The notes beneath the pieces are model-generated. The model was not told where the DNA came from. It made no database searches and worked only from the letters and a program-made list of their open reading frames with translations. 64,000 nucleotides of DNA. Origin: a virus (Duplodnaviria > Caudoviricetes). This document shows, piece by piece, positions 29,460-46,656 of this stretch (within the stretch, counting starts at the first letter, position 1; every line of letters starts with the position of its first letter). A program made the position numbers and the translations under genes. Where the stretch lies: positions 62,092-126,091 of the IMG/VR virus record IMGVR_UViG_3300028914_000064; one strand, written 5' to 3'.

Positions 29460-29870
29460 TCAGCTTTTCTCTATTATTTTTATTTGCATTGTATTATTTG
29501 TAAATTGCTCTAATTTTATATCGTTGGTAATAAACATAACTGGACTAAGACTTTGAGCAACTGCCAATTGCAAGCTATCCATTGCACGAATGCTTGAATT
29601 AGATCTTAATTCTCCTGATATGTATCCCATGTCTTTAATAATTGGAATTATCTGAATATCATTATCAGCAATAAATGCTTCTAATCTTTCTTTGTTTTGT
29701 TGGAAATCCTGAGTAGTATATTCCATAATTGTTACAGGTGAGATATAAATATGATAAGCTTTAGATGCATATTCTTGTATTAATCTTCGTGCCTTATTTC
29801 CAAGTTCACTGGGATTTTCTAATGCATAAATAATACAGCATGTATCTAAAAAGATATTATATTCTGTCAT
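29460..29870 (-). CDS. vapC: PIN-domain (VapC-like) toxin
   Basis: IFLDTCCIIY, SPVTIMEY, MDSLQLAVA, FITNDIKL acidic PIN tetrad. Confidence 0.88.
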   Translation of the reverse strand: MTEYNIFLDTCCIIYALENPSELGNKARRLIQEYASKAYHIYISPVTIMEYTTQDFQQNKERLEAFIADNDIQIIPIIKDMGYISGELRSNSSIRAMDSLQLAVAQSLSPVMFITNDIKLEQFTNNTMQIKIIEKS

Positions 29871-32051: not shown

Positions 32052-32726
32052 TCAGGCTTTAGTTGTGCCTGTTATACACATTTCTATAATAAATTTTTTG
32101 ATAAGGCTGTTATCATTTGAAGCATAATAATCAACTAACATCTGCTTAAATTTTCCATCATATTCTATGGGGACATTAAAGATTCCCTTTCCATTTTGAA
32201 TTAGTATCTTGTTTATGACATAGCTTCCAACTCTCTTATTTCCATCTTTAAAAGGTTGCATTCTCATAATATAAAGACCTATATCAATTGCTGAATCTGT
32301 AATATAATCTGCATCAATTGATTTAAGAACTTCACATAATTCATCAATATCTTTTTCTGTTGGAACAGATGGTCTCCATGTCGTTCCAGAAATCATTACC
32401 TCATCTTTTCTAAATTTTCCTAGATAAGTGTATTCGACATCAAATCTTGCAATTAGGTTATGTAAATCTTCTAGAAAGATAAGATTTAGATCTGATTCAA
32501 TATTGTCAAGGAGATATTTCCAACCATCTCTTAAACAACATACCTTACTTATATCTTTTGGAGTAATGGAATCTACATTTACGTTGTTAATAATATCTTG
32601 TGTTTCAGCAAAAGTAACTCCTATACCTTCGAGGTTCGCTTGCTGATATATTGAATCAATCAAAATCCGTTTTGCACAAAATACATTTTCTTCTAAAGTC
32701 ATGTTATAAATATCTTGCACTTTCAA
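32052..32726 (-). CDS. Fic-domain protein with non-canonical motif
   Basis: QQANLEG, LHNLIA, GKFR, QPFKDGNKRVG (Gln in place of the catalytic His). Confidence 0.85.
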   Translation of the reverse strand: MKVQDIYNMTLEENVFCAKRILIDSIYQQANLEGIGVTFAETQDIINNVNVDSITPKDISKVCCLRDGWKYLLDNIESDLNLIFLEDLHNLIARFDVEYTYLGKFRKDEVMISGTTWRPSVPTEKDIDELCEVLKSIDADYITDSAIDIGLYIMRMQPFKDGNKRVGSYVINKILIQNGKGIFNVPIEYDGKFKQMLVDYYASNDNSLIKKFIIEMCITGTTKA

Positions 32727-34945: not shown

Positions 34946-35431
34946 TCATTTCTCAATCTCCTTTAATTTCCTTTCATACTCATCGATCTGTTCCATTGTA
35001 AGCCACTCAGGTTTTTCATCATCTGCAAATGCATTCCATCTCTTTCGCATTTCTTTTATTTGATCTTCTGCGTTTCCGGCCCAAAAGAAATTGTGTGGCA
35101 TATGAATATTATTGTTAATCACATAATCGCAATCGCTTTTCAATCTGCTTAGCATGTTGTAGGCATAAGTCATTTCCTTTGGAAGAGGTTCATAATATGT
35201 CCGTTCATCTCCAACAAGATAAAATGCATCTCCATAAGGGTCATGTAGCTTGATACTTGAAATAAGTTTACCTTTTTCATATGTATTTTTATAAACTACT
35301 CTTTCAGTATTTGCTGCTTCATATATCACCTCCTTATCTGTATAATTACTTTCACTTACTTTTCTGATGTAGTTATCAGATATACCTCCTGTTATCTCAT
35401 AATAAGTTCCGTTCATTAACTTTGCTTTCAT
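34946..35431 (-). CDS. LPD11-like domain protein
   Basis: YNMLSRLKSDCDY...WAGNAEDQIKEMRKRWNAF...KPEWLTMEQIDEYE. Confidence 0.7.
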   Translation of the reverse strand: MKAKLMNGTYYEITGGISDNYIRKVSESNYTDKEVIYEAANTERVVYKNTYEKGKLISSIKLHDPYGDAFYLVGDERTYYEPLPKEMTYAYNMLSRLKSDCDYVINNNIHMPHNFFWAGNAEDQIKEMRKRWNAFADDEKPEWLTMEQIDEYERKLKEIEK

Positions 35432-40192: not shown

Positions 40193-40477
40193 TTATTCCT
40201 CGCATTTTTCACACTTCCTTTCTGCACGACATATTCCATGCTCTACATCATCGTACATTTCCCTTGAATAATTTGTCGGTCCAATACTTTCATAGTGCTT
40301 GCAACCAATACAACCATCACAGAAGTACATTACGTTTCCCTTTTCCCTTTCTAGCTTTCGCTTATTTTCTTCTGCTTGAAGTATATATTTCCATTTCCCT
40401 TCTTCCTCCTCTTCCATACATCTTTGATATTCTGCTACACATCCATATACTCTTTCTATTCTTGTTAAATCATCCAT
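40193..40477 (-). CDS. Hypothetical protein with C-terminal Cys cluster; likely start MDDLTRIE at 40477
   Basis: GGAAAAGG RBS-like tract; the upstream part of the called 142-aa ORF overlaps a better ORF in another frame. Confidence 0.6.
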   Translation of the reverse strand: MDDLTRIERVYGCVAEYQRCMEEEEEGKWKYILQAEENKRKLEREKGNVMYFCDGCIGCKHYESIGPTNYSREMYDDVEHGICRAERKCEKCEE

Positions 40478-40508
40478 TTTCCTTTTCCCTTTCCCTTCTG
40501 AATTTCCC

Positions 40509-40655
40509 TTACTGATCCACGCCCAAACCGCAACAATTTCTGCATAATTCGTCTTCGTATCCACAATAATCTTCTGCATATGGACATTTATATTCTTTGA
40601 TTTCATTTCCATTTTCGTCATATTTGATTATTGGAATGTCGCATGGTGTATTCAT
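40509..40655 (-). CDS. 48-aa Cys-rich acidic peptide (not in ORF track)
   Basis: MNTPCDIPIIKYDENGNEIKEYKCPYAEDYCGYEDELCRNCCGLGVDQ; AAAGGAGA RBS. Confidence 0.7.
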   Translation of the reverse strand: MNTPCDIPIIKYDENGNEIKEYKCPYAEDYCGYEDELCRNCCGLGVDQ

Positions 40656-40803
40656 ATAATTATCTCCTTTCAATTTGACCATAAAACGTTGTTTCCGTAA
40701 TTTACTATTACTGATATGTCAGATAATTATAAATTGCCTTTTTGTTATTCTGTTACGTTATATGTAGTTTATATATGATTATCATTTCCCTTTAGGAAAT
40801 GTA

Positions 40804-40869
40804 AATGCTCCATGCGGAATCGAACCGCATCACGTGACGCAACGTAACGTGTTTTGCTTTTGGAGCATT
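40804..40869 (-). ncRNA. tRNA-like element lacking a D-arm (3' flank of the large RNA)
   Basis: AATGCTCCA/TGGAGCATT acceptor-like stem; TGCGG-TTCGATT-CCGCA T-arm; CACGTTACG-TTG-CGTCACGTG hairpin. Confidence 0.75.
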
Positions 40870-41925
40870 GGTGACTAACCCATATACAGTCAAGCCGACA
40901 TTTGCTTTCGCTTAAAGTAGTGCTAACGGCTTACTACTTACACACACCCTTTCCCTTCCTTGATTTCCCTCACTCTATTCGGAGCTTCCGTGTGTGTCAC
41001 TGTTTAACGTCAGACTGAGACGGTCATACTCGTGTGCAACGGATTAACATGACATAAACCGTTTATGAGAGCATAAGCTACTCATCCGAGAACTAGTCTT
41101 ACGACATGGGGATTGTTCCATGTCTGCTAAACTGATTACAATACACACTATAGACTTATTCACCTACTCTACGGACACTTTAAGTATTTGCTTGAGACTT
41201 ATTCCTTCACGCTCAAAGAGCTTGGCTCAATCGTACACTTAAAGCACCATGACAGAGTGATTTACTCGTATGGTTATCTGACCCTCTGTCAACGCTGAAT
41301 ACCCTCGAACAAACAGTATCTATACGTGTTTCATAACCTTTTATGACGTTCGGCTGTGTCAATCGCCTACTTCGTATTTTCCACGGAGTACTTTAACATA
41401 GCATATCTTACGCGCAACCACTTTTCTTCTCGCGTTATCATCCGCCCACATTTGGCAACGTGTGTTGAGACCTACTTAACCGTGGGACGAGCACTCATAC
41501 TCGCCGTGCCACTATCTTTAGCCCTTCTCCTAAGCTATGCTTAGAAGGTGCTACGTGCTACTTACTAATCCACTCGATGAAGCGTTGCCACGCTCACATC
41601 TTGCTGTTAGCTCATCTATAGACGTGTATCACAACTACGCTTACCTCCTTTCATCGTCTTATATTCGGACTCACGTTAATAATCACAGTAGGTGTATCTG
41701 CTACGTTTTCTCGCTTGTTCGTGACGGTTATACTGCGTTTATCGTGTTGTGCTTACTTGAGATATCTTGTATCCCTCTCGCCTTTATCCTCGAGCGAACA
41801 CTGACTAACCTTTATAGTTATAGAGTTTTATTTGTATGTGGAATGCTACATACGGAGCTACGTTGGTATCGGTTACGTATCAAACCTCTTTTATACAAGT
41901 GCCTAACGTTACTTGTGGAACGTAA
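40870..41925 (-). ncRNA. Putative giant structured non-coding RNA (~1.05 kb)
   Basis: No credible ORF; GC ~40-50% in sampled lines vs ~25-30% in flanks; more than 12 helices, several with G-U pairs favouring the minus strand; flanked by two tRNA mimics. Confidence 0.72.
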
Positions 41926-41971
41926 TTTGCGCTACGGAATCGAACCGTATAAATGCCCTTTACAACGCAAA
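41926..41971 (-). ncRNA. 46-nt tRNA minihelix-like element (5' flank of the large RNA)
   Basis: TTTGCGT/GCGCAAA 7-bp acceptor stem stacked on TACGG-TTCGATT-CCGTA T-arm with a 15-nt linker. Confidence 0.75.
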
Positions 41972-41995
41972 AAAAGAAGTGATTAAAAAAAATCC

Positions 41996-42025
41996 AAAAA
42001 TAGAAGGGCTTTTTAGCCCTTCTAT
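41996..42025 (-). terminator. Intrinsic terminator after first early gene
   Basis: ATAGAAGGGCT-TTTT-AGCCCTTCTAT perfect stem with minus-strand U tract. Confidence 0.75.
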
Positions 42026-42034
42026 GCCATTTTT

Positions 42035-42472: not shown

Positions 42473-42558
42473 AATAAAACCACCTTCCTAGCTGTTTAAC
42501 AGCTTTAAAAATATAAAATTATAAAAGTTCAAAGTAGTGACAAAGCACCACAGCCACT

Positions 42559-42586
42559 AGTTTAAATCGACAATAAAAAATGTCAA
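42559..42586 (-). promoter_or_regulatory. Candidate sigma-A promoter of the early (leftward) arm
   Basis: TTGACA (42586-42581), 16-nt spacer, TAAACT (42564-42559). Confidence 0.55.
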
Positions 42587-44043: not shown

Positions 44044-46656
44044 ATGTCACAGTATGGTCTTCGTATCATGAATTTTGAAGCTGCTTCTATTTATGAATAC
44101 ATGAATGGTTTTCGTGATAGACTTGATTCTACGAAAGCAATGTTGGTCAATAGCCTTTTTTTAGATTTTTTATTAGATAATGATTTGCTAATAATCTCCC
44201 AAGGAGATTTTACAAGAAGCATAATTTGTCTTCAATTTGGATATGGTACAAAAGACTATGAGACAATGAAAAAGAGATTGATTGGTAAAGAAGAGGAACA
44301 TTTTAAAACTATCCTTTCAAATATTGAAAAGAATAAAGATAAATGCGTTAAAATTTCAAAAGAAGATCTAAGAGTTAAATATTATACTGAAGGCGTAACA
44401 ATTACTTATAAGACTTTTACTAAAAATGGCAAAGAACTTAAGAACAGAAGAAATACCATCCATTATAAGATGCTATATAGGACTCCCGGTAAAGCAAAAA
44501 AAGGAACCTGTATGTTTATAGATTCTAGGATATATGATAAAGTTCATAATTTTCTTTATATGGGAATTAAATTGCCTATTGAAAGAGCTCCAATTGTTGA
44601 AATGGGAGCTTACTCTTCGCTCATAACAAGTTCTATTATTGGACGAGTAAAAATTCTTCCGGAAGAAATTTTAATTTTAAAAGATATTGACTCTATTTTT
44701 AAAACAAAAGTTTTATCTGTGGAAACTGATGAAAACAAAAAAACATTTATCAAGGAGAAAGAGAATTATGAAGTAATTAATACTCTCTTCGATGGACAAG
44801 CTCTTATTGATGAATCCATCTTTCCGGAGTGGGCAGATGGGTATGTCTTATTGCGTCATCATATGACTAAAGTTGCGGCATTTAAAACAAGACTTCAAAA
44901 ATTTTTTAAGGATTATTATGGTACAGATTATGAAAATGCAAAAGTCAAAGATATGTTTGGTAGGATTGTTAAAATTAAAGATGTGAAATTAGTCACAACT
45001 GATAATGCCATCAAATGGAAAAAATTTGGAGTTGGATTTGATTATTGGGCTTCATGGGTTAGACGTAATGGATGTCAATTTGGGATAGTTAAGACATCAC
45101 ATGAATCTAAGCTTGGAGATGTGCAGCGTATGAGTTATCAGATGATGAATTCGCTCGATATTGAATCTATGCCAAGTGTTTGTAGTAAAACTGTAGAATA
45201 TATAAACAATCTTAAAAACAATGACGAGATTTTTTTAGATTTCTTGGAAAAAAATAAAAATTTTGCAAATGATTTTGAAGTTTTGATTGCGCTTTATAGG
45301 CACAATTCAGATTTTTCAAAAAGCGCATATTTTAGAGAACGTAGGCAAGCCATAATAAATTCATATGTTTTAAATTTCAAAAATGGACATAGTATACAAA
45401 ATGCAGATAACTTAACGATTGTAGGCTCTCCTTATGCTCTTCTGCTCCATTCAGTAAATGAGGATCCATTTAGCGATCCTACTCTTCGTCCAGAAGAAGG
45501 AACAATACAATGTTATACTGAACGTTTTGAGGATGGAGAATATCTTGCTGCATTTAGGTCTCCTCATAATTCTAGAAATAATATTGTTTATCTTCATAAT
45601 AAGAAACATGAATTGTTGAAGAAATATTTTGATTTGGGGAATTATTGTATAGCTGTGAATATGATCGAAACAGATTTCCAATCAAGGGCAAATGGAGCGG
45701 ATCAGGATTCAGATACTATATATACAACAAACCAAAAAGAAATAGTAGAACATGCAAAAAGATGTTATATAGATTATCCGACTATTGTAAATAACATTCC
45801 GAAAGATGCAAATATCTATAATTATGATATGAGAGATTTTGCATTGGTTGATAATAGTCTTGCGGCTTCTCAGCTTGCGATTGGAGAATCTTCTAACTTG
45901 GCTCAGATTGCTTTAACATACACTTATAATTTTGAAGATAGAAAATATTCCGATTATGTTTGCATTTTAGCTGTATTAGCGCAGGTTGCTGTAGATAGTT
46001 CAAAAAGGCGTTTCGATATTTCTTTGTCCGAAGAAATATCCAGGATAAAAAAAGATATGGATATTACGGAAAACGGACTCCCCTTTTTTTGGCTTATAAC
46101 TAAAAGAGATAAACGAAAAGTGCATTCTGATGAACAAAGAAAAGAACGTGATCGAATAAATAAAATAAAAATCAAGAAGAAAATCGAACCATCATTAGAT
46201 TGTCCAATGAATTATCTTTACCGATTAAGACTCGATCGGACAAAGTATGATTCTCCTTCTTTACCGATGGATAATTTTTGGATAAGACATGATATTGAAA
46301 ATGGTCGCCGTAAATCAAGACTTGTAGAGAATCTTATTGAAAAATATTCTCTTAGACTTTATAACTACAACGCCGCAGATGAAAAGGATTCTTCTGATTA
46401 TCTTTTGCTTAGAGAAGATTTTGATGAGCTCATTTCAGATATACAGAGAATCTATATTTCAAAAAATTACCTTGGAATGATGAGTTGGCTTATCAATAGA
46501 GCTTTTATGATTGGGAGTGGGGTTCAACAGAATAAGAATAGTCTTAGCTCAAAATTATATAAGAATAGAGCTTTGTTACTTAAAGTACTATATATTGTAT
46601 CTCCAGAAGTTTTTTTACAATGTTTTGTAGAAAAGTGTACACCTAAACAAGAATAG
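44044..46656 (+). CDS. yonO: YonO-like single-subunit DNA-dependent RNA polymerase
   Basis: 870 aa; YKMLYRTPGKAKKG, LFDGQALID, LLRHHMTK, QRMSYQM, AFRSPHN and catalytic GADQDSD (DxDxD); sits upstream of the structural genes. Confidence 0.9.
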   Translation: MSQYGLRIMNFEAASIYEYMNGFRDRLDSTKAMLVNSLFLDFLLDNDLLIISQGDFTRSIICLQFGYGTKDYETMKKRLIGKEEEHFKTILSNIEKNKDKCVKISKEDLRVKYYTEGVTITYKTFTKNGKELKNRRNTIHYKMLYRTPGKAKKGTCMFIDSRIYDKVHNFLYMGIKLPIERAPIVEMGAYSSLITSSIIGRVKILPEEILILKDIDSIFKTKVLSVETDENKKTFIKEKENYEVINTLFDGQALIDESIFPEWADGYVLLRHHMTKVAAFKTRLQKFFKDYYGTDYENAKVKDMFGRIVKIKDVKLVTTDNAIKWKKFGVGFDYWASWVRRNGCQFGIVKTSHESKLGDVQRMSYQMMNSLDIESMPSVCSKTVEYINNLKNNDEIFLDFLEKNKNFANDFEVLIALYRHNSDFSKSAYFRERRQAIINSYVLNFKNGHSIQNADNLTIVGSPYALLLHSVNEDPFSDPTLRPEEGTIQCYTERFEDGEYLAAFRSPHNSRNNIVYLHNKKHELLKKYFDLGNYCIAVNMIETDFQSRANGADQDSDTIYTTNQKEIVEHAKRCYIDYPTIVNNIPKDANIYNYDMRDFALVDNSLAASQLAIGESSNLAQIALTYTYNFEDRKYSDYVCILAVLAQVAVDSSKRRFDISLSEEISRIKKDMDITENGLPFFWLITKRDKRKVHSDEQRKERDRINKIKIKKKIEPSLDCPMNYLYRLRLDRTKYDSPSLPMDNFWIRHDIENGRRKSRLVENLIEKYSLRLYNYNAADEKDSSDYLLLREDFDELISDIQRIYISKNYLGMMSWLINRAFMIGSGVQQNKNSLSSKLYKNRALLLKVLYIVSPEVFLQCFVEKCTPKQE

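Follow-up and report, generated by a model that had tools for sequence, protein, structure and literature searches.

The window analyzed here is a stretch of 64,000 nucleotides (nt), part of the 126-kb IMG/VR virus record IMGVR_UViG_3300028914_000064, and it raises the question of what occupies a kilobase-scale gap between genes in its leftward arm. Genes lie on the minus strand to the left of approximately position 42500 and on the plus strand to the right of it. When open reading frames (ORFs) of at least 40 amino acids (aa) were scanned on the locally dominant strand, positions 40683 to 42034 formed the sole ORF-free stretch of at least 300 nt across the 42-kb minus arm, interrupted just by a 49-aa chance ORF. 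The GC content was 0.42 to 0.46 within positions 40804 to 41971, 0.30 to 0.35 in the flanks, and 0.32 over the whole window. A preliminary description of this DNA had noted a single kilobase-scale coding gap that was richer in GC than its flanks, and the ORF scan and the GC profile both bear this out. The same description proposed a structured noncoding RNA (ncRNA) read from the minus strand, and our results agree: the RNA spans approximately 1.05 kb between two terminal elements resembling parts of a tRNA and 1.17 kb when these handles are included. It extends from position 41971, where the 5' acceptor stem begins, to position 40804, the discriminator that follows the 3' acceptor stem. The comparisons reported below are best read as placing this element in a new family of giant, ornate RNAs carried by phages, which resembles GOLLD and ROOL in kind and yet belongs to neither.

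The region does not encode a protein

Region 40805-41971 is noncoding. Each of its minus-strand frames contains 25 to 31 stop codons, and TAA, TAG, and TGA are each present in all six frames of the window and of four divergent homologues. Since all three stop codons occur in every frame, no single codon reassignment opens a frame, and reassignment of stop codons was rejected as an explanation. Substitutions between the window and three homologues showed no three-base periodicity; in the comparison with homologue L002, they numbered 101, 94, and 111 at the codon positions. A 149-aa ORF is present on the plus strand (41537-41986), but it has no Pfam or PHROG match and is not conserved, the longest antisense open stretch in homologue L019 being 62 codons. 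Thus, a conserved ORF with codon-position bias in its substitutions was not found in the region. It had been anticipated that homologues would conserve base pairs instead of a reading frame, and the stop codons, the lack of periodicity, and the covariation described below are all as expected.

Homologues define a family of 13 members

Members were found by synteny, by conserved-pattern scans, and with a covariance model. A search with the 870-aa polymerase-like protein encoded to the right of the gap returned seven related IMG/VR contigs. Five distinct contigs proved to hold a colinear noncoding homologue at the same position (L004 and L005 are nearly identical at the locus). A 34-nt pattern taken from one conserved island returned just these five contigs in a scan of IMG/VR and three additional members in metagenome assemblies. 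Two further metagenome matches, L017 and L018, were dropped because they did not align to the family. Contigs carrying further relatives of the polymerase gave three additional members. Covariance model R1, which describes an 83-nt two-hairpin domain (41395-41477 in the window), recovered two members from outside its training set, L039 (E value, 1.7e-11) and L040 (E value, 1e-4). Collecting homologues from the same locus of related phages that encode YonO, as the preliminary description had suggested, thus gave 12, all at the same position in related contigs with a gene for a YonO-like RNA polymerase, and the family has 13 members including the window.

Outside this set, matches were absent or spurious. 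The 34-nt pattern found no true member among 185,579 species-representative genomes and made one chance match, in Rubripirellula (L020). Model R1 identified nothing beyond the family members in 350 kb of related phage DNA, and a BLASTN search of the region in "distant" mode against 50,697 GenBank phage records gave no match. Protein-anchored searches of IMG/VR found no relatives of the two small proteins that directly flank the RNA.

The members are 918 to 1311 nt long and share 43 to 92% pairwise identity, while the neighboring polymerases are 72 to 91% identical. Conservation is concentrated in islands, namely, TCAGTGT...GAGGAT, AGATACACC, CACGTAGCAC, GATTGACACA, GAGGGTA, GGTYWAGATWACC...GTRAATCAC, GTAGAGTA, and GGWACAATCCCC, which are set apart by hairpins of variable length, with insertions and deletions at the hairpin tips. 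Within the leftward arm, the family is separated from the divergent control region by one small gene. As shown here by comparison of these loci, the family exists and is absent from Rfam. It appears to be an accessory element of gut and rumen phages with genomes of approximately 120 kb or more and a YonO-like RNA polymerase.

The body of the RNA has a conserved base-paired architecture

Two consensus structures were examined. Structure A2 is the RNAalifold consensus of the four closest members, and structure A3 covers a 401-nt core in 11 members from all clades. The parts of the RNA to which they refer are as follows.

40869-41925, minus strand: body of the giant RNA in the RNAalifold consensus, 1057 nt counting the discriminator at 41925, with no open frame
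41606-41799, minus strand: 5' multi-helix domain of the A2 consensus, with the densest compensatory changes
41161-41561, minus strand: core conserved in all clades (A3), with motifs CACGTAGCAC, GATGATAA...GAGAAGAAAAGTGG...TAAGATA, GATTGACACA, GAGGGTA, and GTAGAGTA
41395-41477, minus strand: two-hairpin domain behind covariance model R1
41254-41288, minus strand: most conserved module, a closing helix CAGAG/CTCTG around GGTCAGATAACC...GTAAATCA (helix 9 of A3; four of five pairs changed on both sides)
40876-41046, minus strand: 3' accessory domain, present only in the clade of the window and in L033 and lacking in shorter members

Structure A2 contains 303 pairs, and 96.2% of the cells in its paired columns are standard pairs. 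Both sides had changed in 45 pairs, compared with 16.9 ± 3.0 when partners were shuffled (0 of 500 shuffles) and 2 to 6 when partners were slid by 1 to 3 columns. Within the 5' multi-helix region, helix 10 (41756-41746/41635-41626) stands out, with both sides changed in seven of nine pairs; the corresponding counts are three of six in helix 9 and two of four in helix 11. The more divergent comparison gave the same picture. Of the 38 consensus pairs in A3, 22 had changed on both sides, and 94.6% of cells were paired versus 77.4% in shuffles. Double-changed cells numbered 69, compared with 22.5 ± 3.8 in shuffled controls (0 of 500) and at most 12 when partners were slid. The recovery by R1 of L039 and L040, neither of which the model had seen, provides an independent check of the structure. 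G-U pairs make up 12 to 15% of paired cells, which indicates that the RNA is read from the minus strand. Conservation of the base-paired architecture is shown here by this pattern of substitution.

Single-sequence folding gave a mixed result. When two half-length folds were compared with dinucleotide shuffles, the folding energy of the 5' half was ordinary (z = -0.13), whereas that of the 3' half lay below all 100 shuffles (z = -2.64). Folding no better than shuffled controls had been named beforehand as an outcome that would speak against a structured RNA; it was observed for the 5' half and not for the 3' half. The ten helices listed in the preliminary description also survived in part: read on the minus strand, nine have complete complementarity, and the consensus of the four closest homologues retains six.

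Two features of the body vary between clades. The module GGTTTAGATWACC...GTGAATCAC, enclosed in its covarying closing helix, is present in three to four copies in one clade (L003:3530-4447, L014:704-1637, and L040:695-1653) and in one copy elsewhere; the reiterated module may be a binding or docking site. The extra 3' domain in the clade of the window and in L033 is approximately 170 to 270 nt long. A candidate loop-loop pairing, 41453-41460 with 41583-41590 (CGTTGCCA with TGGCAACG), is kept in L032 as GTTACCA/TGGTAAC through a double change from G:C to A:U, and similar pairings are visible by eye in L033 and L038. On the other side, L015 and L019 have lost the partner hairpin, and L002 lacks a complement, so this pairing stays a candidate.

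tRNA-like elements lie at both ends

The body is bounded by two elements, each of which pairs an acceptor stem with a T arm.

41926-41971, minus strand: 5' tRNA-like minihelix, 46 nt, with a 7-bp acceptor (41971-41965/41932-41926), a 15-nt linker, and a 5-bp T stem (41949-41945/41937-41933)
40805-40868, minus strand: 3' tRNA-like element, 64 nt, without a D arm, with a 7-bp acceptor (40868-40862/40811-40805) and a T stem (40829-40825/40817-40813)

The 5' element has acceptor strands TTTGCGT/GCGCAAA, T stem TACGG/CCGTA, and T loop TTCGATT; its discriminator is position 41925, and no CCA follows. The 3' element has acceptor strands ATGCTCC/GGAGCAT and the same loop, TTCGATT, with an A-rich strand substituting for the D arm and a hairpin at 40851-40831. 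Its discriminator is position 40804, again with no CCA after it. The window's two elements have GGTTCGATTCC in common. That each end carries an acceptor/T-arm element sharing this sequence had already been noticed, and the observation holds, with covarying stems that recur across the family.

Every one of the 13 members has the 5' acceptor/T-arm element. Its acceptors differ in sequence and stay complementary, as in TTCGCGT/GCGCGGA, ATCGCGT/GCGCGAT, CCCACGT/GCGTGGG, TGCTAAG/CTTAGCA, AGGTCTGA/TCAGATCT, and others; within the close clade alone, three of seven acceptor pairs had changed on both sides, and the T stems also covary. The linker is 13 to 46 nt long or is replaced by a small hairpin. 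T-loop positions 54 and 55 are variable in the 5' elements (TGCAACT and CGCAATT), which is expected, since there is no D loop with which they could pair. The 3' element was found in 10 of the 13 members, with acceptors (for example, GCCCACT/AGTGGGT and ATCTCCC/GGGAGAT) that covary between clades; it was not found in L039.

Both elements have the features of the top half of a tRNA, namely, a 7-bp acceptor, a 5-bp T stem, and a 7-nt T loop with U54...A58. Neither has the cloverleaf of a genuine tRNA, with a D arm and an anticodon arm with a 7-nt loop, and ARAGORN found no tRNA in the window or at these sites in the homologues. No element of the family has an encoded CCA. The trailers are mostly U rich (TTAC, TTAG, TTGG, GTTC, TCTC, TTTA, TTTC, TTTT, and so on), and none is NCCA. 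A processing signal for RNase P and RNase Z consists of a 12-bp coaxial acceptor/T-arm stack that bears a T loop, lacks an encoded CCA, and is followed by a U-rich trailer, and these elements have that anatomy. The alignments shown here indicate that the tRNA-like ends are conserved.

The family is distinct from known large RNAs

At the gathering score, Rfam 15 identified no family anywhere in the window or in 11 homologue loci. A permissive cmscan search (E values up to 10) of three members that are approximately 50 to 60% identical found no GOLLD, ROOL, OLE, intron, RNase P, or Y RNA, and tests with Rfam and ARAGORN gave no assignment to tmRNA, RNase P RNA, group I or group II introns, OLE, raiA, HEARO, or Y RNA. 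Subthreshold matches were confined to tRNA-type models over the 3' elements, specifically tRNA-Sec in the window and L033 and the tRNA-like domain of tmRNA in L004; the tRNA-Sec match in the window was weak (21.2 bits; E value, 0.41; gathering score, 47). The suggestion that the RNA may be a new class was therefore upheld by the Rfam 15 check. No paper describing the giant RNA was found in the literature; a large IMG/VR screen reported RNA candidates averaging 67 nt (PMC10690425), among which fragments of it might be included.

GOLLD and ROOL, both RNAs of phages or prophages, are often located near tRNAs (PMC5737381; 10.1101/2024.12.08.627333). GOLLD (RF01998) resembles the present RNA in being a very large, ornate ncRNA of phages and prophages that combines a conserved part with a variable part and has no assigned function. 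It differs in that no covariance-model match was obtained at E values up to 10, including to its conserved 3' domain, and in that the conserved motifs are unrelated. It often lies beside tRNAs, and sometimes tRNAs are inside its linker, but these neighbors are genuine tRNAs, whereas the present phage-borne RNA is flanked by built-in look-alikes, lacking D and anticodon arms, at both ends of a conserved unit. ROOL (RF03087), first found in rumen metagenomes, is likewise a large, ornate, dispensable RNA of phages and prophages that lies near tRNAs. However, the family did not match the ROOL model, which has six multistem junctions as well as three pseudoknots in approximately 580 nt, and it sits elsewhere in the phage genome, in the leftward accessory arm. 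The preliminary description took the RNA to be apparently longer than typical ROOL or GOLLD, and this is correct: at 918 to 1311 nt, it has roughly double the length of ROOL (mean, 581 nt) and is longer than GOLLD, many examples of which exceed 800 nt.

The ends of the RNA have parallels of their own. Mitochondrial polycistronic transcripts are punctuated by tRNAs and tRNA-like elements, and a tRNA-like element sets the 3' end of MALAT1 (the MALAT1/mascRNA case; PMC8457004). As in those cases, a long RNA is bounded by tRNA-shaped elements of the type that RNase P and RNase Z recognize through the acceptor/T-arm stack, and many mitochondrial tRNAs lack a D arm, as do the present elements. Those cases are eukaryotic or organellar, whereas the present RNA would be made by a phage inside a bacterium, carries a handle at either end, and has cleavage sites that are predicted. 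YrlA-type Y RNAs and tmRNA are also ncRNAs that contain a tRNA-like module with an acceptor and a T arm. In these RNAs, the module is formed by or within a small RNA of approximately 100 to 400 nt and ends in CCA or is aminoacylated, whereas the giant RNA has two separate local minihelices without CCA that flank a 1-kb body, with no match by Rfam or ARAGORN.

A 145-aa gene precedes the RNA in the leftward arm

The control region and the neighbors of the RNA include the following features.

42559-42586, minus strand: sigma-70-like promoter candidate of the leftward arm, TTGACA-16-TAAACT, a match in a consensus scan and not evidence of function
42472-42035, minus strand: ORF of the 145-aa gene that precedes the giant RNA
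42000-42025, minus strand: hairpin resembling an intrinsic terminator, 11 bp followed by a T run, after the 145-aa gene; the giant RNA begins 28 nt beyond it
40783-40801, minus strand: 8-bp hairpin just past the giant RNA, conserved as helix 46 in the RNAalifold consensus of the close clade

The minus arm therefore runs from a promoter-like site through the 145-aa gene, the terminator hairpin, the giant RNA, and the small conserved hairpin to the next gene. The RNA had been placed at the head of the operon, and this placement needs correction, because the 145-aa gene and the terminator at 42025-42000 come first and the RNA makes up the second unit. In the consensus scan, 42559-42586 was the sole promoter candidate upstream of the giant RNA. 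Homologues also have a terminator hairpin, located 0 to 25 nt upstream of the 5' tRNA-like element. With a terminator directly 5' of the RNA, in the window as in the homologues, there is no space for a sigma-70 promoter.

On the 3' side, a promoter-like sequence, TTTACA-16-GATAAT (40805-40778, minus strand), overlaps the hairpin at 40783-40801 and lies ahead of the next gene (ATG at 40682). From its sequence, this site (40778-40805) could serve to restart transcription for the downstream genes. The first putative gene 3' of the RNA (40509-40682, minus strand) would encode a 57-aa cysteine-rich protein with no family match and overlaps a 142-aa ORF (40193-40621) in a different frame. Genes farther downstream in the leftward arm, likewise on the minus strand, specify PIN-domain (29460-29870), Fic/DOC (32052-32726), and LPD11 (34946-35431) proteins and are typical of accessory functions or host manipulation.

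The plus arm begins with genes for a 272-aa protein, a helix-turn-helix protein, and the 870-aa polymerase-like protein (44044-46656, plus strand), which belongs to PHROG 8308, a group of unknown function. The family of the 870-aa protein is very large, with more than 3,290 relatives at E values of 1e-20 or below. The protein has no Pfam domain, and a phmmer search of PDB sequences found no relative of solved structure. The label "YonO-like" is based on PHROG 8308, on weak tblastn matches to genes of Enterocloster, Clostridium, and Bacillus phages, and on neighbors with YonG domains; in relatives, ClpP and YonG-domain proteins come after the 870-aa protein, as in SPbeta-like phages. Since the nearest cultured phages by polymerase are phages of Enterocloster, Clostridium, and Bacillus, at no more than 31% identity, the host is likely to be a bacterium of the Clostridia type from the gut or rumen.

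Other contents of the slot in sister phages

The position of the giant RNA has other contents in sister phages. In L025 to L028, it holds a gene for an ADP-ribosylglycohydrolase and several small ORFs (L025:2172-4363), and all that resembles the RNA locus is a piece of approximately 100 nt similar to the sequence directly downstream of the 3' tRNA-like element of L004. In L024, the slot is empty. In L030 (2446-3622) and L031 (3214-4259), both on the minus strand of their loci, the same position is taken by a different gene-free stretch of 1.0 to 1.2 kb that is bounded by intrinsic terminators. These two stretches have islands of conservation in common, along with hairpins in which compensatory changes occur; they have no Rfam match, and neither nhmmer nor model R1 detected a relation to the giant RNA family; this element may represent a second large phage RNA family. 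Taken together, the loci suggest that the position behaves as a hypervariable accessory slot. That it is filled differently in sister phages suggests a dispensable accessory or host-interaction role.

Proposed maturation and function

A 7-bp acceptor stacked on a 5-bp T arm is the minimal determinant for RNase P and, on precursors that lack CCA, for RNase Z. This leads to a model of read-through and four cuts, in which the giant RNA would be part of a leftward polycistronic transcript that reads through the terminator at 42025-42000. The model places an RNase P cut on the 5' side of each element, preceding 41971 and 40868, and an RNase Z cut past each CCA-less discriminator, following 41925 and 40804. 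The predicted products are a body of approximately 1056 nt (41924-40869) and two minihelix RNAs. Judging from the conserved ends, the RNA is probably released from the polycistronic transcript by RNase P together with RNase Z. The size of the RNA, its invariant single-stranded motifs, and the reiterated module favor a particle that acts in trans over a leader. By analogy with GOLLD and ROOL, the mature RNA most likely acts in trans during infection as an RNA particle, one that would fold by itself and might self-assemble or bind protein.

We consider it likely that the region specifies a giant multi-domain structured ncRNA of a family outside Rfam that is punctuated by tRNA-like ends, is probably excised by host enzymes, and acts in trans. 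On a fuller proposal we are evenly divided. It states that this is a new class of giant RNA (approximately 0.9 to 1.3 kb), unrelated to GOLLD and ROOL and self-punctuated for host RNase P and RNase Z, which acts in host takeover as a trans-acting particle (self-assembling, catalytic, decoy, or scaffold) and resides in a hypervariable slot that is filled elsewhere by protein accessory genes or by a second, unrelated 1-kb noncoding element.

Other explanations of the locus were weighed against these. The region might act in cis as a processing or regulatory hub, a structured intercistronic spacer that serves to cleave, stabilize, and set the levels of the flanking leftward-arm mRNAs. Such a role would suit an RNA that is embedded in an operon, with a terminator on one side and the next genes on the other, has no promoter of its own, and is directly followed by a promoter-like site and a conserved hairpin; tRNA-like elements are, moreover, known mRNA processing signals. 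However, a multi-domain structure of approximately 1 kb with single-stranded motifs that are invariant across members of 43 to 60% identity exceeds the needs of a processing site, the downstream genes vary between members, and relatives without the RNA retain the same operon layout. We regard a cis-acting hub as unlikely. It is quite improbable that the RNA is a known large RNA (GOLLD, ROOL, a group II intron, RNase P RNA, or similar) that has diverged beyond the reach of covariance models. The setting, in rumen or gut phages with a tRNA association, is that of ROOL and GOLLD, and GOLLD is variable in its 5' half and may contain tRNAs within its linker, but the permissive search of three members returned no match to GOLLD, ROOL, introns, or RNase P, no intron-encoded protein is present, and both the size and the conserved motifs differ.

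The remaining two explanations dispense with a functional RNA. Phage attachment sites often copy the T arm and acceptor 3' end of a tRNA gene, and the occurrence of GGTTCGATTCC in both elements is what would be seen if they were DNA-level features, either attP-type copies of a host tRNA or remnants of a decayed phage tRNA array, with a nonfunctional spacer between them. Against this, a complementary 5' acceptor strand belongs to each element separately, and the two strands covary from phage to phage, which indicates selection on RNA pairing and not on DNA identity with a host tRNA; the intervening sequence itself also has covariation and invariant motifs. The attP relic and the decayed tRNA array were both rejected because of these co-changing acceptor strands and the covarying interior, and an origin of this kind is highly improbable. 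A protein-coding region, with small proteins or a gene in an alternative code, is scarcely credible. The 149-aa plus-strand ORF and the reassignment of stop codons in some gut phages would speak for it, but all three stops occur in every frame on both strands of five divergent members, and the ORF is missing in homologues, has no match in Pfam or PHROG, and lies where mismatches are spread evenly over codon positions.

Several points weigh against a trans-acting, self-punctuated giant RNA. Structures A2 and A3 were predicted on the same alignments that were used for the pair counts, so the contrast with the controls is inflated, and many long-range helices of the four-sequence model never vary and are thus unsupported by covariation. 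The 5' half folds no better than shuffled sequences, although the covariation outweighs this result. The family is known from just 13 sequences, several of them closely related. The 3' ends of L003 and L014 consist of just a T-arm hairpin followed by a terminator, which means that two-sided punctuation is not universal, and the RNA is absent from closely related phages and so is dispensable. Finally, we infer the route of transcription, the strand, the cleavage sites, the action in trans, and the formation of a particle, and the function proposed is drawn from the likeness to GOLLD and ROOL.

Significance of a giant phage RNA family

To our knowledge, very few bacterial or phage ncRNAs exceed 500 nt, namely, rRNA, RNase P, group II introns, OLE, GOLLD, and ROOL. 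Each of these has opened new biochemistry, most recently in the form of RNA-only nanocages. A family of approximately 1.1 kb would surpass every other RNA of the phage set in size and would offer both a new target for cryo-electron microscopy and a handle on what such RNAs do for phages. The conserved tRNA-like handles point to a concrete maturation mechanism that is open to testing, and they may explain the long-noted association of GOLLD and ROOL with tRNAs, through cotranscription and excision by the tRNA-processing machinery. The dispensability of the RNA and the variability of its slot point to an accessory role in the interaction with the host that is accessible to comparative genetics.

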